Origin: Promethearchaeota archaeon
Lineage (GTDB): Archaea > Asgardarchaeota > Lokiarchaeia > Sigyniarchaeales > SOKP01
Assembly: GCA_019058245.1 (NCBI GenBank)
Contig: JAHPZJ010000020.1
Coordinates: 1 to 64,000, forward strand
Direction: 5' to 3'
DNA length: 64,000 bases
This document shows positions 19,725 through 34,853 of the stretch, piece by piece (the first letter of the stretch is position 1; each line of letters opens with the position of its first letter). Under the pieces are notes generated by a model. It saw nothing but the letters and a program-made list of their open reading frames with translations. It had not been told where the DNA came from and searched no databases. A program made the position numbers and the translations under genes.

Positions 19725-20024
19725 ATGGATTTTTTTCATAGCAATCTTAAAGAAACACTTGATGCGATAAATAAATTAATAGATAATAATATCAACATTG
19801 TAAATACTAAAAGAATTAGACGGTGTAACAACATTAAATCTTCAAACCGATCTAAGATCAATTTCATTTGGAGAGCTTTAAAATATCTTGAAGAAGAAGG
19901 AATATTAACCCCAAATGGAATAACAAATCCTAAAACCTATAAAATAACGACTAATGAAAAGATTGATATTAATAAAATACTTTCCCAAATTGAGAAGAAT
20001 AAAAAAAAATCTATCTTAGTTTAG
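19725..20024 (+). CDS. Small basic winged-helix hypothetical protein
   Basis: KINFIWRALKYLEEEGIL...TYKI helix-wing pattern. Confidence 0.6.
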   Translation: MDFFHSNLKETLDAINKLIDNNINIVNTKRIRRCNNIKSSNRSKINFIWRALKYLEEEGILTPNGITNPKTYKITTNEKIDINKILSQIEKNKKKSILV

Positions 20025-22742
20025 ATGCAAATCTGTTAAATATTCATCTAATTTGATTTTAGATTCCTTATCATCTGGATTATTAACCAGCCGTTTTTGA
20101 TAAAATATTATGTTTGGATATTTCAATTCCATTTTATTAAAAATTTTTATCCATTTATTAAAGTTATCTAAAAGTACCAGAATTTCGGGATCTTCTTCTA
20201 AAGATAAAATTTCTTCTTTTTTTTCTTTTGAAAGGCCTGTTTTATATTTCTTTATACTAATTCCTTGATCTCTTAGCAGTCTATTATTAGTTTTTCTAAT
20301 AAATGCTTCTAAACTATTTCTCCAATTCACATGTTTTTCAATTATTTTATCTAAAATATCTTGAATGATTTTTATCTCTTGTGGAAAAATTGTCTCTTGT
20401 TCCTTAGTAAGGATTTTTTTTATTATCTTAAATTCAGTTTCAAGCTTCTGAATATAATTGTTAACCATCTTTTCAAATTCAAACAGAACAGTATTATAAT
20501 CTTTAGCAAAGATCACTTCATCACTAGAAAAAGTCAGAGTTTCTTCATCAAATGAACCTTTTAACCTTTTATTTTTTACCAATTCATCAAATATTTCCTT
20601 CATAAATTCAATCTCAGCTTGATTTAATTCCTTTCCATAAAACAAATCATGAAAAGAAAAGAGAAGACTATTTTCCAGCATCAAATTACGAATTCCACGT
20701 TCGGTATAAAAAAGAATTTCTCCATCAATTTCATTAAAAATTCCCTTTAATTTTCCGTCTGCTATTAAGTCTTGAATTAATCCCTCAACTAAATTTGAAG
20801 TGATATCATAGTTTCCTAATGATATATATTCATTAGATTTGGATTTATCAATCAACATATATTTTATATCATTCTTAGCCTCTTCTATTTTCTGTGGATG
20901 AAAAATTAATTGATCCACCTTTTTGAAATAAGAAATACCTAATCCATCAATAAATTTCAGAAAACCTTCTGGTTCCATTCCAGTTTTTTCAATATAATCA
21001 TTAATGTTAATTTTATCTTTTAGTTTTATTTCTGCCCCGATTGATTGTAAGTTTTCATCAATTTTAGTTAAAATATGTTTTTTATCAATATTTAGTTCCA
21101 TTGATATTTTGTTAATTTGCTTTATTTTTTTCTCTTCATCAGAAATCGTTGAGAGCTCATTAATTTTATCATTAATATATTTAGAATAGTAAAAAATCTC
21201 TTTCTTATTATTCCAAATACCACTTCTATAATCGACTAATTGATCAAATACGTCTAAAAGTAAAAGTTCTCCAATATTTAACTTTTCTGATATTGTGGAA
21301 ATGTCAAAATAACCAATAATTTTTGAATTTTGGACTTCATTTTTTATTTTTTGAGATCCTAGATTGGTTAACCATTGTGTACCTTTACGAAAATTTGATA
21401 AATATTCTCTTGGTAAATTTTTTATTATTCTTATGAAATCTTCATCATTTAAAATTTGACGATATGACTTTAAATCTACAATACTTTCCTTAGCTGCTTC
21501 TAAATTAATTTGATTTTGAATATTTTTTAATGAAATGATTGTTTCTTGATCTACACATCTTAGGAATACATCCTTCATAGATTTTGAGATATTTTTAATT
21601 ATTTTATTAATGGATTCTTGAGGTAGGAAGTTGAATTTGCCTAAATTGATAGAACCATTTAGTTGTAATTCTTCCATAAATTGTGAATTAAGGTAGCTAT
21701 ATGAATAAAAGAATCCAATATTAGAATAATATCCATTAATGATTTTTAATTGGATTAAAGTTTTTATAAATAATTTTAACTCTGAATCATTCTCAATAAC
21801 TTGAGAAAATGTAGAATATATTTTTTCATCCGATATTTTCTTATCTCGTTCAAAAAAAGTTTTTAATTTGTCTTTTTCTAGTTCATATACATAAGTTGCC
21901 TTTTCTCTTGTTATTATATAAAAATATACTTTTTTTTCCTTTATAGGAGATTTAGAAATTTTTTTAACATATTCTTTAATACTTATCCCTAATTCCTTTG
22001 AGATTGATGTAAAATTATGTTTTTTCATCAAAAAGTAGTTATTTAATAACTTTTTTATGTCCTTGGTTTCATGGTTTTCTAAATCGATATCCTTATATAA
22101 TGGAAAAAACTTTTTCAACAGTTCAATTAATTTTATATAAATTTTTGATGTTTTTTTGTCTTCAAATGAAGTAATTAAGGATTCGGAAATGAACCTAAAA
22201 TTGTATAATTGATCAAATTCTAAATCATTACAAAAATCAAGAAAATTTAACAATGAAAGGATATTTTCATATTTACTTTCTGTTAGTAGACTTTTTAGAA
22301 TAATATCTAAATTAGAGTTTACCAGATTTGGATTTTTTTTAAATAACTCCTGTAAAAAGAAATGTACATTATTTCTAGTATCTTCAGATTTATCTTGAAG
22401 AAATTTAATAAATTCATGAAAATAATTATCAAAATATTTTGAATTAGCAAGCATCGCAAATCCAATAACGATGATTGAATTAATTTTTAACTTTTTCTTT
22501 TCTGAATGAAGAAAAACCTCAATTTTTTGTATTAATGATTCAGGAATAATTTCTATTTTATTTTCTGCTAGAATTGACATAATATATGTAATTGGGATTG
22601 AATAATTATTATCCTCCAATAAGGTTTCTAACTCATTCATTACTTTTGAGATTTTTTGGACTTTATTTTTGTTTAAATGTTTATTCAGTTTTTCTACTTT
22701 ATCAAGGATCAAATTATCCTTAAAATCTTGAAGATTAAACAT
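20016..22742 (-). CDS. HEAT-repeat plus tandem winged-helix (UFL1/PCI-like) protein
   Basis: N-terminal HEAT-like repeats, then repeated units such as IINGYYSNIGFFYSYSYL..EELQLNGSINL, LIADGKLKGIF and LVKNKRLKGSFD. Confidence 0.6.
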   Translation of the reverse strand: MFNLQDFKDNLILDKVEKLNKHLNKNKVQKISKVMNELETLLEDNNYSIPITYIMSILAENKIEIIPESLIQKIEVFLHSEKKKLKINSIIVIGFAMLANSKYFDNYFHEFIKFLQDKSEDTRNNVHFFLQELFKKNPNLVNSNLDIILKSLLTESKYENILSLLNFLDFCNDLEFDQLYNFRFISESLITSFEDKKTSKIYIKLIELLKKFFPLYKDIDLENHETKDIKKLLNNYFLMKKHNFTSISKELGISIKEYVKKISKSPIKEKKVYFYIITREKATYVYELEKDKLKTFFERDKKISDEKIYSTFSQVIENDSELKLFIKTLIQLKIINGYYSNIGFFYSYSYLNSQFMEELQLNGSINLGKFNFLPQESINKIIKNISKSMKDVFLRCVDQETIISLKNIQNQINLEAAKESIVDLKSYRQILNDEDFIRIIKNLPREYLSNFRKGTQWLTNLGSQKIKNEVQNSKIIGYFDISTISEKLNIGELLLLDVFDQLVDYRSGIWNNKKEIFYYSKYINDKINELSTISDEEKKIKQINKISMELNIDKKHILTKIDENLQSIGAEIKLKDKININDYIEKTGMEPEGFLKFIDGLGISYFKKVDQLIFHPQKIEEAKNDIKYMLIDKSKSNEYISLGNYDITSNLVEGLIQDLIADGKLKGIFNEIDGEILFYTERGIRNLMLENSLLFSFHDLFYGKELNQAEIEFMKEIFDELVKNKRLKGSFDEETLTFSSDEVIFAKDYNTVLFEFEKMVNNYIQKLETEFKIIKKILTKEQETIFPQEIKIIQDILDKIIEKHVNWRNSLEAFIRKTNNRLLRDQGISIKKYKTGLSKEKKEEILSLEEDPEILVLLDNFNKWIKIFNKMELKYPNIIFYQKRLVNNPDDKESKIKLDEYLTDLHLN

Positions 22743-25550: not shown

Positions 25551-25931
25551 ATGAAAAATCAACCCAATATTGAAGGATTAAAATCGAAAATAAAATTTGG
25601 AATAAAATTTTGGCTAGAATTTGAAGGTAAGAGTATATTGGGTTCAGGTTGGGCAGAGTTACTAAAGAATATTGAAAAGAATGAAGAAGGTTCATTAACT
25701 CAGGCAGCAAAGGAGTGTAGTTATTCCTATAAATATGCATGGAATATTTTAAAGAGAATTGAGAGAAGAACTGGTAATCCAATAGTAATAACTGGTAAAG
25801 GAGGTAGTGGGGGAGGTGGCTGGGTAAAATTAAATGAATGGGGGAAGTTTCTATTAAATGTCTATCAACAATATCTAGAAGAAATCAAAAAAATTGAAAA
25901 ATCACTTTCAGAAAAGATGATAAACATCTAA
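25551..25931 (+). CDS. ModE-like winged-helix regulator (no TOBE domain)
   Basis: GSLTQAAKECSYSYKYAWNIL...GKGGSGGGGWVKL. Confidence 0.85.
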   Translation: MKNQPNIEGLKSKIKFGIKFWLEFEGKSILGSGWAELLKNIEKNEEGSLTQAAKECSYSYKYAWNILKRIERRTGNPIVITGKGGSGGGGWVKLNEWGKFLLNVYQQYLEEIKKIEKSLSEKMINI

Positions 25932-26022: not shown

Positions 26023-26448
26023 ATGGAAGACCGCTTAAAAGAGTTTAGTGAAATAAAAGTATCAAGTATTATGATAAATGATCCACTTTTTACATATCCA
26101 AACGAAAAAATCAGTGCTACTGAGCTTCTTATGATAAGGAAAAATATTAGTGGCCTTCCTGTGGTTAAAGATCGGAATAATAAGCAATTAATTGGAATCA
26201 TCACTCAAAGAGATATACGATTAGCTAGATTTGCGATGAGTCTTGATTCTCCCAATACATTAGTTAAGGATTTAATGACTTTGGATCCATTTGTTGTTAG
26301 AAAAAATGATACTCTAATGTATATAATAGAGATGATGTTTGGGAAAAAAATACAAAGATTACCTGTTGTAAATGAAAATAATGAATTAATTGGTTTGGTT
26401 ATGCAAAATGAGATAATGCAAAAACTTCTTGAATATATGAAAAAATAA
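26023..26448 (+). CDS. Stand-alone CBS-pair protein
   Basis: ISGLPVV..LIGIITQRDI and IQRLPVV..LIGLV. Confidence 0.9.
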   Translation: MEDRLKEFSEIKVSSIMINDPLFTYPNEKISATELLMIRKNISGLPVVKDRNNKQLIGIITQRDIRLARFAMSLDSPNTLVKDLMTLDPFVVRKNDTLMYIIEMMFGKKIQRLPVVNENNELIGLVMQNEIMQKLLEYMKK

Positions 26449-26550: not shown

Positions 26551-28074
26551 ATGGCACTACCCCTACCTGGAACCCCAATTATCATTGATATTGGCTCAGC
26601 ATATGTAAAAATTGGATTTTCTGGAGAACCAAGTCCTAGATATGTTTTTCCTTGCATCACTGGGACAGAAAAATATAAATCTATAATGGTTGATGTGAGT
26701 GCTCGAAGCATCTACGTAGGTAATGACGTATCTCGAATGCGTGGTGTACTTAAAATAAACCATCCATTAAGTCGTGGTGAAATTATGGACTGGGATAGTT
26801 ATTATGAGATCTTAAATTATATTTTCTATTCATTGCTTAGAATTGATAACCTTTCCCAGTATCCTGTATTCTATTGTGAACCTCCTTTTATGCTTAAAGA
26901 TACTAAAGAGTATATAGGGCGTGTATTTTTTGAAACTCATCGAGTTGGGAGTTTGGTGATGATGTCAACACCATTACTTTCTTTATTTAGCGTTGGATTG
27001 ACGACAGGATTAGTTATTGAAAGTGGAGAAGGAATGACTTGGATAGTCCCAATAATTAATGGGCAAATTGTTCAGCATGCGGTTCAGAAAATTCCAATTG
27101 CAGGAATTGATGTGAATCAAAACTTGAAAGGTCTCTTAATGAGAGAAGGAGTAAGTATTTCTTCTAGTGCTGCAGATGAAATAATCCAAGAGATAAAAGA
27201 AAAAAACTGTTATTTTGCCTTGGATCCAAATATACCTCCCAAAGCGGGAGAAATGTTTAGTGTTCCTATGCCTGACGGAACAAAAATAAATGTTCCTACT
27301 TATATTCTTTATCAAGCTCCAGAAGTTTTATTTAATCCAGGTATGTTAGGTTCTGGAAATATAATGAATATCCCTCAAGCTGTTATAGCGAGTTTGCGTG
27401 TAATTGATAATAATTATTGGCATGAATTGCTTTCACATATAGTTTTTGCCGGAGGAAATCTATCTTACAGTGGTTTTCAAGAACGGTTCGAGTCTGAATT
27501 AGATCCTCTCTTACCTCAATTAGGTCCAATTCCTAAACCAGTAGCCCCGCTCTCTGCAGTTAAGAGTGAACTAATTAAACTTCAAAGTGTTGAAATCTCT
27601 AAAAAGAATGAAGACACATGTCCAAAATGTGGTGCATTTATTAATCTTGATGATGGGAAAAAAGTATGTCCCTCCTGTGGTGAATTATTAATTTTACCAG
27701 AAATAAAAATAGGAACATTAAATACAAATGGACAAAAAAAAGTAGAAGAAGGTAAATGTCCATATTGCAAAAAAGAACTTCCTGATATGGATTCGCTTTT
27801 TTGTCCATATTGTGGAAAACCAATTGAATCTCTAAAACAAACGATATTACCAGAAAAAGAAATAGAGAAAACAGCAGCACAAGAATTTTCAGAATTTATG
27901 GAATCTGCTAATAAAGTACTAAAATTTTTTGTTCCTGACAATCTTCAGTATGCTGCTTTTAATGGTGCAGCAATACTAGGAAGTTTACCTTCATTCCAGC
28001 AACTTTTTATAACACATGACCAGTTTATAACGAATCCTAATCTTTTATATCGAGATATAAGTGAAATCCTTTAG
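26551..28074 (+). CDS. Divergent actin/ARP-family protein with inserted zinc ribbons
   Basis: IIDIGSAYVKIGFSG, CEPP, TTGLVIESGEG, IKEKNCY, PDG, APEVLFNP, IVFAGG, AAFNGAAILGSL; four CxxC in the insertion. Confidence 0.93.
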   Translation: MALPLPGTPIIIDIGSAYVKIGFSGEPSPRYVFPCITGTEKYKSIMVDVSARSIYVGNDVSRMRGVLKINHPLSRGEIMDWDSYYEILNYIFYSLLRIDNLSQYPVFYCEPPFMLKDTKEYIGRVFFETHRVGSLVMMSTPLLSLFSVGLTTGLVIESGEGMTWIVPIINGQIVQHAVQKIPIAGIDVNQNLKGLLMREGVSISSSAADEIIQEIKEKNCYFALDPNIPPKAGEMFSVPMPDGTKINVPTYILYQAPEVLFNPGMLGSGNIMNIPQAVIASLRVIDNNYWHELLSHIVFAGGNLSYSGFQERFESELDPLLPQLGPIPKPVAPLSAVKSELIKLQSVEISKKNEDTCPKCGAFINLDDGKKVCPSCGELLILPEIKIGTLNTNGQKKVEEGKCPYCKKELPDMDSLFCPYCGKPIESLKQTILPEKEIEKTAAQEFSEFMESANKVLKFFVPDNLQYAAFNGAAILGSLPSFQQLFITHDQFITNPNLLYRDISEIL

Positions 28075-28231: not shown

Positions 28232-29329
28232 ATGAAGTATAAATATCGGAATATAATTACCGTATTTTTTTTATTATTAATAACTTTGAATTTAGTTCCG
28301 AGTGTACTAGGAAAGACACGTGGATCTTATTTAGTTAGTTTTATTAAAAATAATGAAATTGAAGGTATTGGCTTTACTAACGCAAATGATGGTAATGCTT
28401 TGATTTCTTATGAAGCAACAGCACATGCGTTAGAGATATTAGATGATTATGGAACTAATCCCCATAAAATTGACACTCTCCAAGATAATCTTGAAGATAA
28501 AATAAGAGATATGTTTAGTATAAATCAAGTTAATTTATTTGATTTATATTGTTTAATGAAATCATTAGATATCTTAGAACATGAAATTGATTTTAATTTA
28601 AGAAGTGAGATTTATAAGTATTTAAATGAAACTGAACAAATTGAGGGTGGATTTTCTTTCTCAAACAGCTCTAGCATAGCAAGTTTAACTTCTACATATT
28701 ATGTTATTCAACTATATTCATTAATCAATGAACCTATTGATAATCTTACAGTTCATAAAAATTGGATTCTATCTTGTTATAATACAGATGGAGGATATGG
28801 AGGAAATCAAAGCCTATCTTCTAATTTGCTCAATACTTATTTTGTAGTTTCACTATTAGATGAATTTTGGAACATTACTAATCTAGTTGACATCAACCAA
28901 ACAATATCCTATATAAAATCGTTTTATGTTAATAATTCAGCAGATATTGATAATTACGGAGGATATTTACCAGATGATTCAACACAATATGCGATGTTAA
29001 GTAGTTCGTATTTTTGTGTGAAATCACTGTCTTTAATAGATCCTGGCGAAATAAATAAGGATTCAACAATTTCATGGTTATTAACACTTCAAAATTTTGA
29101 AGACGGGGGATTTTCAGATAATACTGAAGGTGATAATCAAAAGAAATCATCAGTAATAGCTTCATATTTTGCTTTTAAAATCCTAAAAATACTGAATCCT
29201 TCCCTCTCTAGTTTAAGTAATGATATATGGATGGTGGAGTTTAATTATTGGATTTTAGTTATAATTCTCATATGTATAGTAGTTGTTATTGGTATAATAG
29301 TATTCATCTGGCGAAAAAAAAGATTATAA
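28232..29329 (+). CDS. Surface-anchored prenyltransferase/squalene-cyclase repeat (alpha/alpha barrel) protein
   Basis: Signal peptide; repeats EQIEGGFS, YNTDGGYG, QNFEDGGFS; many N-x-S/T sequons; C-terminal TM plus RKKRL. Confidence 0.8.
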   Translation: MKYKYRNIITVFFLLLITLNLVPSVLGKTRGSYLVSFIKNNEIEGIGFTNANDGNALISYEATAHALEILDDYGTNPHKIDTLQDNLEDKIRDMFSINQVNLFDLYCLMKSLDILEHEIDFNLRSEIYKYLNETEQIEGGFSFSNSSSIASLTSTYYVIQLYSLINEPIDNLTVHKNWILSCYNTDGGYGGNQSLSSNLLNTYFVVSLLDEFWNITNLVDINQTISYIKSFYVNNSADIDNYGGYLPDDSTQYAMLSSSYFCVKSLSLIDPGEINKDSTISWLLTLQNFEDGGFSDNTEGDNQKKSSVIASYFAFKILKILNPSLSSLSNDIWMVEFNYWILVIILICIVVVIGIIVFIWRKKRL

Positions 29330-29429: not shown

Positions 29430-30293
29430 ATGGAAGATAAAATATTAGACGGAAAAAAATTAGCATATGAGTTAAATGCTGAACTTAAAGAAAAAATTTC
29501 AAAGGCTGTAAAAAAGACAGGTATTATACCAAAATTAATAACGATTTTAGTAGGTAAAGATAGTGCTTCAAAAACTTACGTTAATATCAAGCAAAAAACA
29601 TGTCAAGAAATAGGAATAGATTCTAAAATAATAGAACTGGATGAAAACATATCAAAGGAACAATTAAGGGATGAAATAAGTAAACTTAACAATGATCCTA
29701 CTACTCATGCTATACTTCTACAATTACCTTTACCTAAAAAATTAAGAGAATATACTCCAGATTTTCTGGAACAAATATCATCGTCAAAAGATGCTGATGG
29801 TTTACATCCCTTTAATCGTGGAAAACTTTTTGATTACAATGAAGAATTAGCTGCTTGTACTCCCAAAGGGATAATAAAATTATTAGAACATTATGATATT
29901 GAAATTAAGGGAAAAGATGTAGTTATAATAAATCGATCAAATTTAGTTGGAAAACCCTTGATTTTTATGTTGCTAAAAAGAAATGCAACAGTTACAATCT
30001 GTCATACCTCAACAAAAGATATTAATGAATACATCCGAAAAGCAGATATCTTGATAACTGCTGTTAGACAACCAAATTTTATAACTAAAGACAAAATTAA
30101 GGAGGGGGTAATTATAATAGATGTTAGTACAAATCGTGTTGAAGGAAAATTATGTGGTGATGTAGATTTTGAAAATGTTTTAGAAAAATGTCAAAAAATA
30201 ACCCCCGTTCCTGGTGGAATAGGACCAATGACAGTGGCAATGCTTTGTGATAATACTTTCACAGCCTATAAGAAACAGGTAAATATTTCTTAA
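29430..30293 (+). CDS. folD: Methylene-THF dehydrogenase/cyclohydrolase
   Basis: YVNIK, LLQLPLP, KDADG, CTPKG, RSNLVGKP, TPVPGGIGPMT. Confidence 0.95.
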   Translation: MEDKILDGKKLAYELNAELKEKISKAVKKTGIIPKLITILVGKDSASKTYVNIKQKTCQEIGIDSKIIELDENISKEQLRDEISKLNNDPTTHAILLQLPLPKKLREYTPDFLEQISSSKDADGLHPFNRGKLFDYNEELAACTPKGIIKLLEHYDIEIKGKDVVIINRSNLVGKPLIFMLLKRNATVTICHTSTKDINEYIRKADILITAVRQPNFITKDKIKEGVIIIDVSTNRVEGKLCGDVDFENVLEKCQKITPVPGGIGPMTVAMLCDNTFTAYKKQVNIS

Positions 30294-30479: not shown

Positions 30480-30935
30480 ATGGCAATTTTAGAAATTGGT
30501 ATTAATCTCGGCATGAGAAATTTAGTTGAAATTAAATATTATTCATCTTCGGATAATGTCTTGGATCCAAATTTGCGTGCTGGTTTCCTAACAGCTCTAG
30601 AATCCTTCACATCAGAGGTATTCGGCGATGATATAAATGTAATCAGCCTTGCGAGTTTTAAATTAGTTTGTTATTGCGAAATGATTACTTTACCTAGTGA
30701 TGATTTAAATAATAAACAACCCTTATTATCATATGCCATAATTGAAAAAGGAACAGATGCCTCAGTAGTAAAACAACAGTTGAGTCAAATTATCTCATAC
30801 TTTCTCAATCGTTATCCCTTAAATGATATTTTTTCAAAAAAACCTAAATATTTTCGACAATTTGAGAGTAGAATTAATGAGATTTTAGGAGATTTAAGAT
30901 TAAAAACTGAGGATAGATTTCGTTCTTTATTTTAA
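30480..30935 (+). CDS. Longin-like domain protein
   Basis: DPNLRAGFLTALESFTSEVFGDDINVISL pattern of longin-fold proteins. Confidence 0.65.
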   Translation: MAILEIGINLGMRNLVEIKYYSSSDNVLDPNLRAGFLTALESFTSEVFGDDINVISLASFKLVCYCEMITLPSDDLNNKQPLLSYAIIEKGTDASVVKQQLSQIISYFLNRYPLNDIFSKKPKYFRQFESRINEILGDLRLKTEDRFRSLF

Positions 30936-30957
30936 ATTAATCCTGTAGTGTTTTAAG

Positions 30958-32151
30958 TTGAGTTCTAATTTACCACCTTTAGCTAAAGCGAAATATCAAG
31001 AGTATTTAGATGCTGGAGCTTTAGAAGATAGGATAAAAAAGTTAGAGGAATTTCTATCCTTAGTTCCTAAGCATAAAGCAACAGAAAAGATTGTTGCCCT
31101 TAATAAATCACGCTTAGCTAAGATGAAGCGTGAACTAGAAGATCGTAAATTAAAACAAAAAAGTACTCAGAAAATTGTTAGTCCTTTTTCAATAAAAAAA
31201 GAAGGAATACAAGTAATATTAATTAGTAGCTTCCAAACACCAGGGGCAGGAAAAACTTCAATCCTAAACTACCTAACAGGCGCAGCAAAAGAGAACATTG
31301 GAAAATTTACAGCACTACCAGAAATTGGAATATATAAATATCAGAAGATCCGGTTTCAAATAGTAGAAATGCCCGCTATTATGGAAGGCGCTTCTGATGG
31401 TGTAGGAAATGGAAAGGAAATACTTTCACAACTTAGAGCAGCAGATTTATTATGTTTATGCATAGATTTATCAAGAAATATAGAAGACCAGATGAATTTA
31501 TTATTGTCTGAATTATCAAAGGCTGATATTCGAATAAATGAATCACCGCCCCCTTTAACAATTGAAAAAACGGGTGCCAACAAGGTTCAGGTTCTTTATC
31601 TCACTAAAGAAGCTAAAAATGTTGAAGGACTAGGAGATTTTACAGATCAAATAAAAGAATTAGTTTATGAAAATGGGATTCGTAATGGGATTGTAAAAGT
31701 TTATGGTCAGATTACTCTTGATGATATTGTGGATGCATTAACTCCTTCCGTTGTATATAAAAAAGTAATATTGTTAGGAACTAAAGGAGATCTATCTCAT
31801 ACTCAAGATATTTTTGAAAGCTTAAAAGAAAACTATAAAGATATGTTTCCTATAATTATTGGTACAAGCTATATGAAAGAAAAACTTCCTAAAGATTTTG
31901 GTGAAATCATATTAAAATTCTTAAATAAAATCAGGATATACACTATGAGTAGTGGAATTATTGCTCAACAACCATTAATAATGGATGAGAATTCTACTAT
32001 TAAAGATGTAGCTTTAAAAGTTCATAGAAGTTTTTTTGAATCATTCGAACATGCAATAGTTATACGGGAAGGAGAACGACAGAAACGTAAGAAAGTTGGT
32101 CTAGATTATATTCTAAAAGATCTTGATGTAGTAGAAATACATATAACCTAA
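30958..32151 (+). CDS. DRG/OBG-family GTPase with TGS domain
   Basis: PKHKATE, GAGKTS, KFT, EMPAIMEG, TKGD; C-terminal KVGLDYILKDLDVVEI (TGS). Confidence 0.88.
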   Translation: MSSNLPPLAKAKYQEYLDAGALEDRIKKLEEFLSLVPKHKATEKIVALNKSRLAKMKRELEDRKLKQKSTQKIVSPFSIKKEGIQVILISSFQTPGAGKTSILNYLTGAAKENIGKFTALPEIGIYKYQKIRFQIVEMPAIMEGASDGVGNGKEILSQLRAADLLCLCIDLSRNIEDQMNLLLSELSKADIRINESPPPLTIEKTGANKVQVLYLTKEAKNVEGLGDFTDQIKELVYENGIRNGIVKVYGQITLDDIVDALTPSVVYKKVILLGTKGDLSHTQDIFESLKENYKDMFPIIIGTSYMKEKLPKDFGEIILKFLNKIRIYTMSSGIIAQQPLIMDENSTIKDVALKVHRSFFESFEHAIVIREGERQKRKKVGLDYILKDLDVVEIHIT

Positions 32152-34853
32152 TATTTGATCTTCTCTATTAAGTTTGGTATCTCTAAAATCTCTTTCCTGT
32201 AATCACTATCTAAATTAGCTAAACCATCACCAATATTTTTAACACTTTCTAAACTGTAAATTAACTCCTCGAGGTATGTTATAAGATCTCCTTTAAAGAC
32301 TAATATCTTATATTCTTTAATCAAATAGTTAGAAATTTCTTCAATTGTCATTTTATCTTTAACTCGTAAATTTAATATTAATTTTTCCAAACTTAATCGT
32401 CCACAATCGCAATATGGATTATCCTTACAGGTACAATTAAATATATCACTTGTTAATTTCATAATAAAGTCAATAAAATCACGTGAAAATGTTTTTCTTT
32501 TTTTTACATAATCAGCATTCATCAATGATAATACACTAGCACTGAATAAATTGTTGGAAAAATATTTCATATTAACATTTTTTGATAAATCGGCAACTAA
32601 ATCTTTAGATAAATAAACATTTCTAAGATTTTCTAAGTCTAAAGCAATATCTAAAGGATTCTTAATTTTATCTTGCATTACTTTAATTATCTCAAGACTT
32701 TTTTCAACAGATAAAAAGGAATTGGCAATTGCTCTTCCTAAACGAGTGTTTTTTAATTTTAAGTCTTCTCTAATTCGCACTAATTTAAAGGACAATAATT
32801 TCTTCAAAATCGCCTCTAGGTCAAAATAATTATTGATTAAATTATCATAAAATTTAAAGATGATTTCCTTTGAAATCCATTCATTAAACATAGCAATAAA
32901 TGCAAGAATTTCTGTTTGTGACTTATCTTCATTAGGAATAAGTTCATAATCCTTGATCTTTCCATTTAAAAGTTTAATCGCAATATTTTCTTCTGTAATT
33001 TTCATTTTGGGAGAATAAACTTTTCCAGGCTCAACAAGTATATAGGCTAAACCTTTCTCATGCTTTTTTAATCTTCCCGATCTTCCAATCATTTGTTCAA
33101 ATTCAGCAACTGTTAACCACTTTATACCCATTGCTAAAGACTCAAAAATAACTTGACTTGCGGGAAGATCAACTCCTGCAGCTAAAGCAGCAGTTGCAAC
33201 TACTCCCATTATTTGCTGAGATTGAAAATTTTCTTCAATTTTTTTTCTTTCTTCGTTTGTTAATCCAGAATGATAAGCAACTACTGGAAGATTTCTGTGT
33301 TGCAAATATAAGGATATTGATTCACACTTTTTACGAGTATTTGTGAATACTATTGATTGACCTTTGAATCCATAAATGGATTTTTTAGAAAAGGCAGCTT
33401 TAATTAAGTTAGAAATATATTTTTGTTTTTGAGTTTCATTCAGACACATTAATAAATGACGTTCGACCGGGACTGGGCGATTATCATACCTAATTAATTC
33501 ACAGTTTAGTTTTTTTGCTAATAATTTTGGTTCTCCTAATGTTGCACTCAAATATAGAAACTGGGAATTAAATTGCGTTTTTAACCGGGATATTAAACCA
33601 TCTAATATAAATCCTCGCTCTTGATCTATCAACGTTTGAATTTCATCGATAATAATTGTCCCAATATTTCCTAAAAGCGCTATATTCCCACTTCTTAAAA
33701 TATAATCAATTGCCTCATAAGTTGCAATAATCACATGAGCATTAACTAAATCTTTAATATTGTTTTCCTCTTTTTTTCCAAATAAAGACTCTCCAACTCT
33801 TTTTATTACCTTCAAATTAATTGATTTATATTTTTCTTTAAATTCTTCTGTTCTTATATTGGCCAAAGCCACAATCGGTACTAAGTATAACATCTTAGCG
33901 TTTCTCTGATTTAAAACTTTTGATATTCCCGCTAATTCACCTACTAATGTTTTACCTCCACTTGTAGGGGCCATTATTAATTGATTAGTATGTTCTGATA
34001 ATAACCCTTTTTCTATAGAAATTGCTTGTATTGGTAATAAAGTAGTTAAATTTAGCTCTTTCATTATCTTTTTAAACACTGTAGGAATATTCAGATTGTC
34101 AATTTTTTGATTAAGATATTTTTTATTGATTGAAGGTGTCTTTTCAACATCATAGAGCGTTATTTCACGGTCTTTTACAGGATTAAAATCGGTCTTAAAA
34201 GCATCTAATATTTTTTTGACATCTTTAAATTTAAGAATCATATGCATTAGAAAATTCTTTAACTTAGGACTGATTTTCTCTTTAGAAATCATCCCTGTCA
34301 ATTTTATTCTGTTCACAACAATATCATAAGAGCATTCGGAACAGATAATTTGATTTTTTAAAGATTTAATTTGATTGTTCTTATTTAGTAATGTAAACTT
34401 ATTTTTATCTAAACATGAATCACAAATAGTTAAATTGATGATTTTCTCTGTATCAAATTGAAAACTGTTCAACATCTCTTTAACTGGTAATATATCTTCA
34501 GATCTGGTTTGGTTTGAAAATGCAATAAATTTATTCTTATCTGAAACCATAAATTTCTTAAGTAAACGTGGATCAACTGGTTTTGAGTTTCCATTATTCT
34601 CAATTTTATTAAAATAAAGTGGTCTCATCTTGTTTTTAAAATCTAACCCAAAAATTACCGTACCTTTAAAGAATGGTTCATTTACATATGTAAATTTGAA
34701 TTTTTTTTTCTTGAATGATTTAAGGTAAAAGAAATTAATATTAAAAAGTAATTCTTTTCTATGCTCACGATTTCTATCCAAAACAATGAAAAAATTTCTT
34801 AAAGGAACACTCAATTTGAATCCATTAGTGGATAATAATAAATTAGTATGCAA
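32148..34853 (-). CDS. Archaeal SF2 DExH-type helicase with DUF5814-like C-terminus
   Basis: APTSGGKT, DEIQ, LSAT, YHSGL, QMIGRSGR; CTCKDNPYCDCG. Confidence 0.88.
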   Translation of the reverse strand: MHTNLLLSTNGFKLSVPLRNFFIVLDRNREHRKELLFNINFFYLKSFKKKKFKFTYVNEPFFKGTVIFGLDFKNKMRPLYFNKIENNGNSKPVDPRLLKKFMVSDKNKFIAFSNQTRSEDILPVKEMLNSFQFDTEKIINLTICDSCLDKNKFTLLNKNNQIKSLKNQIICSECSYDIVVNRIKLTGMISKEKISPKLKNFLMHMILKFKDVKKILDAFKTDFNPVKDREITLYDVEKTPSINKKYLNQKIDNLNIPTVFKKIMKELNLTTLLPIQAISIEKGLLSEHTNQLIMAPTSGGKTLVGELAGISKVLNQRNAKMLYLVPIVALANIRTEEFKEKYKSINLKVIKRVGESLFGKKEENNIKDLVNAHVIIATYEAIDYILRSGNIALLGNIGTIIIDEIQTLIDQERGFILDGLISRLKTQFNSQFLYLSATLGEPKLLAKKLNCELIRYDNRPVPVERHLLMCLNETQKQKYISNLIKAAFSKKSIYGFKGQSIVFTNTRKKCESISLYLQHRNLPVVAYHSGLTNEERKKIEENFQSQQIMGVVATAALAAGVDLPASQVIFESLAMGIKWLTVAEFEQMIGRSGRLKKHEKGLAYILVEPGKVYSPKMKITEENIAIKLLNGKIKDYELIPNEDKSQTEILAFIAMFNEWISKEIIFKFYDNLINNYFDLEAILKKLLSFKLVRIREDLKLKNTRLGRAIANSFLSVEKSLEIIKVMQDKIKNPLDIALDLENLRNVYLSKDLVADLSKNVNMKYFSNNLFSASVLSLMNADYVKKRKTFSRDFIDFIMKLTSDIFNCTCKDNPYCDCGRLSLEKLILNLRVKDKMTIEEISNYLIKEYKILVFKGDLITYLEELIYSLESVKNIGDGLANLDSDYRKEILEIPNLIEKIKY

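Follow-up and report, generated by a model that had tools for sequence, protein, structure and literature searches.

An actin-related protein with zinc ribbons, altered catalytic residues and one retained stacking face in an order of Lokiarchaeia

The window analysed here, the first 64,000 nucleotides of contig JAHPZJ010000020.1 (assembly GCA_019058245.1) of a Promethearchaeota archaeon, contains an actin-related protein gene, ARP-A, in which a cysteine-rich segment interrupts the actin fold (Table 1). What might an actin homologue of this architecture do in a genome that also encodes a canonical Lokiactin? A first-pass annotation, made from the sequence alone, proposed a specialised ARP that would act as a capper, nucleator or scaffold.

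The gene is an actin with a large insertion, as that annotation had read it. The 507-residue product matches the Pfam Actin family (PF00022, E 2e-64) in two separate stretches and Zn_ribbon_3 (E 1e-12, above cut-off) in two more. Alignment with solved actins runs from residue 6 to ~324 and restarts at residue 457, so the insert is bounded at residues ~326–455; the span of about nt 27520–27915 first given for it is thereby refined to nt 27526–27915. The flanking actin segments GFQERFESEL and KFFVPDNLQYAAFNG are residues 308–317 (nt 27472–27501) and 458–472 (nt 27922–27966). An AlphaFold model has a confident actin core with a TM-score of ~0.85 against actins when scored by target, and the loop glycines, D11 and K18 are invariant. 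In an atlas search with the structure model, the sole match with this architecture is the protein's own cluster. A chimeric assembly, raised at first as a possible artefact, is ruled out: an independent study has contigs over the insert in three of its runs, and two of these contigs cross both junctions, and the best 120 listed homologues, drawn from many assemblies, have the same length and four CxxC motifs each. A recent transfer of the insert is not indicated either (GC 0.32 vs 0.36; insert already present in the deepest family). A promoter and terminator scan returned 38 sites against 35 expected, the promoter type scanned being the wrong one for archaea.

Table 1. Features of the ARP-A locus and two actin paralogues of the same genome. 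Positions refer to the window unless another locus is named.
Feature	Position	Strand	Remarks
ModE-like HTH protein, upstream	25551..25931	+	neighbour in two families
CBS-pair protein, upstream	26023..26448	+	common neighbour in this family, absent from several lineages
ARP-A	26551..28074	+	one open frame, 507 aa; Pfam, solved-actin alignment, structure model
Actin fold, first part	26551..27525	+	aa 1-325 = actin ~5-322
D-loop	26671..26706	+	aa 41-52; K39, Y40, M44 equivalents kept 43/44
Arg64 = actin R62, pointed-face salt-bridge residue	26740..26742	+	44/44
Thr140 replacing catalytic Gln137	26968..26970	+	S/T/A in 44/44
Phosphate-2 loop region	27019..27042	+	D154 to E, H161 to W; G156, G158 kept
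W-loop, actin 165-172, barbed face	27052..27075	+	E167, F169 replaced
Subdomain-3 contact segment, actin 286-290	27406..27420	+	V287, D288, R290 replaced
Insertion	27526..27915	+	aa 326-455, 130 aa, at actin loop ~322-326
Zinc ribbon 1 (predicted)	27619..27678	+	C357, C360, C373, C376
Zinc ribbon 2 (predicted)	27757..27813	+	C403, C406, C418, C421
Actin fold, last part	27916..28074	+	aa 456-507; C-terminus 3-9 residues longer than that of Lokiactin
Predicted single-pass membrane protein, downstream	28232..29329	+	signal peptide, prenyltransferase-type alpha/alpha toroid, short basic tail
FolD	29430..30293	+	usual second gene downstream
Paralogue B	L003:1480-2601 (G000 C13); L170-L189	-	found in 57/61 genomes of order
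Paralogue C	L005:1435-2631 (G000 C29)	-	both stacking faces and catalytic residues lost, yet widespread in this family

The insert was first described as a four-CxxC zinc ribbon behind a Pro-rich linker, and both descriptions hold in part. All four CxxC motifs are present (starting at residues 357, 373, 403 and 418; nt 27619–27813), but in the model they form two separate C4 ribbons, like beads on a string, rather than one domain; pLDDT is 64–71 in the ribbons and below 50 in the linkers. Each ribbon has two conserved CxxC knuckles 11–12 residues apart, as in C4 zinc ribbons (PF13248/PF13240), and from this sequence pattern both would be expected to bind zinc. The linker is 31 residues long, and its Pro-rich character is confined to four prolines in the first eight. 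All eight Cys are invariant in an alignment of ARP-A with its best 120 listed homologues (121 sequences), which places the motif far above chance, and among the best listed homologues conservation is 0.65 in the insert vs 0.84 in the core. Across the family the insert measures 114–209 residues; ribbon 1 was found in every full-length insert-bearing member examined, and ribbon 2 is absent from the deepest family and the L. ossiferum group. An insert-only atlas search gave no usable match. Towards the end of the insert lies an acidic-aromatic motif (E-F/Y followed by E/D; residues ~445–451, nt 27880–27900, plus strand) that is seen in 31 of 44 representatives and is visible in the deepest family; it could be a docking or self-inhibition element.

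The genome encodes five actin homologues: Lokiactin, a Lokiactin duplicate, ARP-A and paralogues B and C. ARP-A shares 35% core identity with Lokiactin, and in a quick maximum-likelihood tree, built without named Arp2 or Arp3 sequences, ARP-A, B and C each form one clade (SH-aLRT 98–100) outside the grouping of the conserved Lokiactins plus eukaryotic actins. Together, these results bear out the proposal of a specialised ARP distinct from the main filament actin. Lokiactin duplicates occur in many genomes of this family; the second Lokiactin-like gene here (L002:1387-2619 region, plus strand; G000 C10) adjoins a 401-residue ORF with a profilin-like-looking start. Genomes from other Lokiarchaeia orders contain divergent actin folds with long C-terminal extensions (L156, L158 and L161; 570–853 residues), two of them with repeated acidic low-complexity units.

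Comparison of 44 non-redundant ARP-A representatives with 41 Lokiactins reveals an altered nucleotide site. The phosphate and adenosine loop residues D11, G13, K18, G156, G158, G301 and G302 are invariant in all 44, whereas the residues of hydrolysis are replaced: S, T or A stands at Q137 and R at H73 in 44/44, E at D154 in 42/44 (D154 itself is kept in 2/44), and H161 is kept in 9/44. All 41 Lokiactins retain the four residues. Q137 is the catalytic residue activated in the filament, and its change to Thr in yeast Arp4 has been read as rendering ATP purely structural (PMC3510490). Since the nucleotide loops are kept and the hydrolysis residues are not, ARP-A probably binds nucleotide with little or no hydrolysis.

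ARP-A is a nearly constant component of one order. A family profile finds it in 142 of 153 genomes of that order, in all four families and nearly always as a single copy, and in 0 of 7 from other Lokiarchaeia orders; elsewhere in a sample of the whole phylum, matches stay at the Lokiactin level. Its homologues carry Promethearchaeota or Lokiarchaeia names. Both cultured Lokiarchaeia have orthologues, at ~42% core identity to ARP-A: DSAG12_03244 (QEE17409.1, 557 aa) in P. syntrophicum MK-D1 and UYP44711.1 (499 aa, one ribbon only) in Ca. L. ossiferum. They share with ARP-A a common clade, gene neighbours, the insert site and the active-site changes. Whether this is already a characterised subfamily, as the first-pass annotation allowed, has a divided answer. 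The fusion was listed in 2020: Supplementary Table 9 of the P. syntrophicum study enters an actin-related protein ‘fused to double zinc ribbon’, with an RPKM of 229 against 501 for Lokiactin (PMC7015854); we tie QEE17409.1 to that entry by its 557-residue length and the ribbon position. UYP44711.1 is one of three ‘ARPs’ included in a tree and in RT-qPCR, and is transcribed at a level below that of Lokiactin (PMC9834061), the only paper matched by a full-text search for the orthologue accessions. In the literature searched, in which coverage of the key papers is incomplete, no functional study was found, nor any discussion of the insert site, the catalytic loss or the face asymmetry described below. 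As far as searched, the protein has been noticed as an annotation and never studied; new here, from the sequence comparison, are the loss of Gln137 in 44/44 representatives and the asymmetry of the stacking faces.

Successive subunits of F-actin meet through the D-loop and subdomain 4 on one side and the W-loop and subdomain 3 on the other; the named contacts are R62–D288, D244–R290 and the I287 key (PMC10019781). When the contact segments of that study are scored by identity to the Lokiactin consensus, ARP-A keeps 0.45 of its pointed face vs 0.20 of its barbed face (p 0.012 by a position shuffle that ignores relatedness). The same scores are 0.85 and 0.84 in Lokiactins, in which both longitudinal faces are intact, and 0.22 and 0.22 in paralogue C. 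Retention on the pointed face is 100% for R62 and 98% for both M44 and K39, vs 9% for E167, 7% for D288, 2% for R290 and 0% for V/I/L287 and F/Y169 on the barbed face; Lokiactins retain these barbed partners at 98–100%. The deepest ARP-A family has the same pattern, and loss of the barbed face may be a single ancestral event. Both the insert and the lengthened C-terminus lie on the barbed side. The hydrophobic cleft residues 143, 346, 349 and 352 are mostly kept, and the D-loop has its normal length.

Several features qualify this asymmetry. First, P243, D244 and G245 are kept in every paralogue, even C, and are thus weak evidence for retention of the pointed face. Second, 14 of 44 representatives, both cultured species included, have a deletion or change at residues 202–205 on the supposedly kept face. 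Third, within the family the barbed face is conserved as much as the pointed face (0.65 vs 0.66), so the rebuilt barbed face may bind a new partner rather than just block. Fourth, identity at the cross-strand contacts is 0.18 and 0.25, below the 0.35 background, so tight binding to a two-stranded end fits badly. One genome carries a second, 385-residue copy of ARP-A without the insert (L212:2973-4130, minus strand; G342 C37), in which M44, A204 and P243 are also lost; in this single case, the kept face seems to have decayed after loss of the insert.

The preferred reading, to which we assign a probability of roughly 0.5, is that ARP-A is a non-polymerising, probably non-hydrolysing ARP whose pointed face would dock on an actin-fold barbed face and block growth there, while its tethered ribbons recruit or anchor a partner. 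The bound nucleotide would serve as a structural cofactor. The D-loop and subdomain 4 would dock on a second actin-fold subunit, at its barbed face; the simplest candidate is the subunit that ends a Lokiactin filament. ARP-A could not accept a further subunit, and the strand would end. From the capped end, the zinc ribbons on their flexible tethers would reach a partner protein, possibly at the membrane. The residue patterns are read directly from the sequences, and from them we infer every binding step. Of the roles first proposed, the capper fits the surface conservation. The nucleator, in the Arp2/3 sense, does not, because nucleation needs an intact barbed face and ARP-A has lost F169, V287, D288 and R290.

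Paralogue B has faces that mirror those of ARP-A: identity is 0.31 on the pointed and 0.52 on the barbed face (p 0.036 by the same shuffle, published segments). Paralogue B keeps residues 169, D288 and R290 at 100% and 287 at 95%, retains Y143, F/Y169, D286–R290 and H173, and has lost M44, R62, A204 and Q137, its catalytic residues also being replaced. The asymmetry of B depends on the residue list: with a different set of contact residues none is seen (p about 0.5), which makes the mirror pattern less secure than the asymmetry of ARP-A. Paralogue B is a candidate pointed-end cap or seed. Directly upstream of it in 5 of 21 loci is a gene without a Pfam match (L003:2874-3596, minus strand) for a 240-residue protein with 18% Pro, a C-terminal helix and an LKKI motif, WH2-like by eye; a gene resembling those of small GTPases occupies this position in the family of P. 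syntrophicum.

ARP-A could instead pair with B, its pointed face on the barbed face of B, alone or around a few Lokiactins, in a closed ARP scaffold likened to dynactin's mini-filament or nuclear ARP modules that would not regulate long filaments. We regard this as rather unlikely, even though B retains exactly the residues that ARP-A lost, both are near-universal and single-copy in the order, and the poor cross-strand conservation of both suits a non-filament assembly; the face pattern itself fits a heterodimer as well as it fits filament capping. The two genes are unlinked in every locus read, and B was not found, with one query, in the single deepest-family genome searched, which has ARP-A. 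A broader scheme, which we hold to be doubtful, is that the order divides actin's stacking faces between two catalytically dead paralogues, ARP-A ending and ribbon-tethering the barbed end, possibly to the membrane protein encoded next door, and ARP-B seeding or capping the pointed end.

That membrane protein underlies a second alternative. Its toroid gene lies directly 3' of ARP-A in almost every locus, those of the deepest family and both cultured species included, its tail is basic and the insert region of ARP-A is mostly acidic. ARP-A might accordingly be a monomeric adaptor that works with this neighbour at the cell envelope, its actin fold serving as a scaffold and its D-loop binding a non-actin partner. 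However, the toroid is predicted to be extracellular, with an inner tail of only 5–10 residues, and two genomes of a single genus have ARP-A without this link. Genes for a ModE-like HTH protein, a CBS protein and FolD, which is probably a passenger, are also usual neighbours, the housekeeping ones (FolD, ModE-like) linked nearly as well, so old gene order suffices as an explanation. The adaptor also leaves the retention of actin-contact residues in particular unexplained, and we consider it improbable; a functional link between the two proteins is possible. A single paralogue of the toroid protein is encoded in the genome (C3:37873-41028, ~1050 aa), and relatives occur among Thorarchaeia clusters. 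It is not a true prenyltransferase acting on ARP-A, given its signal peptide and C-terminal membrane helix and the absence of a CaaX motif from the end of ARP-A. Beyond FolD, the locus continues in this family with a 151-residue protein without a Pfam match, longin/roadblock-like by eye, a DRG-type GTPase with a TGS domain and a DEAD helicase with DUF5814 (30480-32151, plus strand; 32148-34853, minus strand). A 908-residue protein with a weakly HEAT-like N-terminus (20016-22742, minus strand; Cnd1, E 0.006) is also kept near the locus in this family.

It is quite improbable that ARP-A self-polymerises or mixes into Lokiactin filaments, its ribbons decorating the outside as binding sites: the full actin fold (TM ~0.85), the normal D-loop length and the mostly kept cleft would allow it, but it no longer has the residues that would receive its own D-loop and subdomain 4, no family member keeps Q137 and the 114–209-residue insert adjoins the longitudinal contact. 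Least probable is an Arp4/Arp8-like, chromatin- or RNA-associated role in which the ribbons bind nucleic acid, as the first-pass annotation had also envisaged for the insert: the active-site changes do recall those of Arp4 (Q137 to T) and Arp8 (H73 to R) (PMC3510490), and among solved structures ribbon 1 is best matched by the small ribbons of Nop10 and of an RNA polymerase subunit (E 0.005–0.01), but those matches are weak and of a generic Cys-knuckle kind, 33 of 44 representatives have a net negative insert region, the loci compared show no linkage of ARP-A to a remodeller-like gene, and C4 ribbons of this type occur, mostly close to an end, in ~75 ORFs of this genome, dozens of them for unrelated proteins.

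Lokiactin is so far the sole Asgard actin paralogue linked to the filaments observed in cells (PMC9834061). ARP-A is kept across its order and transcribed in both cultured Lokiarchaeia, which makes the capping proposal testable now, and the face asymmetry yields a specific prediction of which end and which residues are involved. If capping by ARP-A is true, archaea independently evolved end-specific ARPs, of a polarity opposite to that of the eukaryotic ones; if the split-face system of ARP-A and B is also true, actin folds by themselves make up an end-control system whose origin is separate from that of eukaryotic Arp2/3, dynactin and capping protein. ARP-A was not found outside one order in the genomes searched, and it is therefore a lineage innovation, probably not the ancestor of a eukaryotic ARP.

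Among known systems, Lokiactin, the filament-forming Asgard actin (the C6 copy of this genome; best PDB match 9wc4, ‘HC1 actin’), shares with ARP-A the fold, nucleotide loops, D-loop type and 61–64 segment. Unlike Lokiactin, it has replaced Q137, D154, H73 and H161, lost the barbed contacts, gained the insert and a longer C-terminus, and evolves far faster, Lokiactins being at least 88% identical across the order. Arp4 and Arp8 are actin folds that carry insertions and degenerate ATPase sites and do not polymerise, as proposed for ARP-A, which also combines such a site with kept nucleotide loops; Arp4 has Thr at Q137, whereas in Arp8 Arg takes the place of H73 and subdomain 3 bears a small insertion at its barbed edge (PMC3510490). 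However, the large insertions of both lie over the pointed and plug sides, they function in chromatin remodellers and they lack zinc ribbons. The searches do not suggest orthology, and the likeness is probably convergent. The subdomain-3 loop had been named as the place where Arp3 and crenactin carry short insertions. This holds for Arp2 and Arp3, in which the subdomain-3 loops are elongated (PMC2651865); crenactin, also an archaeal actin with a loop insertion, has its long insertion at another site, the hydrophobic plug (actin 263–272), keeps the Q137 equivalent and forms double filaments (PMC5173319).

Arp2, Arp3 and dynactin Arp11 are end-specialised actin paralogues, as proposed here for ARP-A. 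They occupy pointed ends with an intact barbed face exposed, and no ARP known to us has been described as capping the barbed ends of filaments. The polarity proposed for ARP-A would thus be opposite to that of Arp2, Arp3 and Arp11, which paralogue B resembles in this respect.
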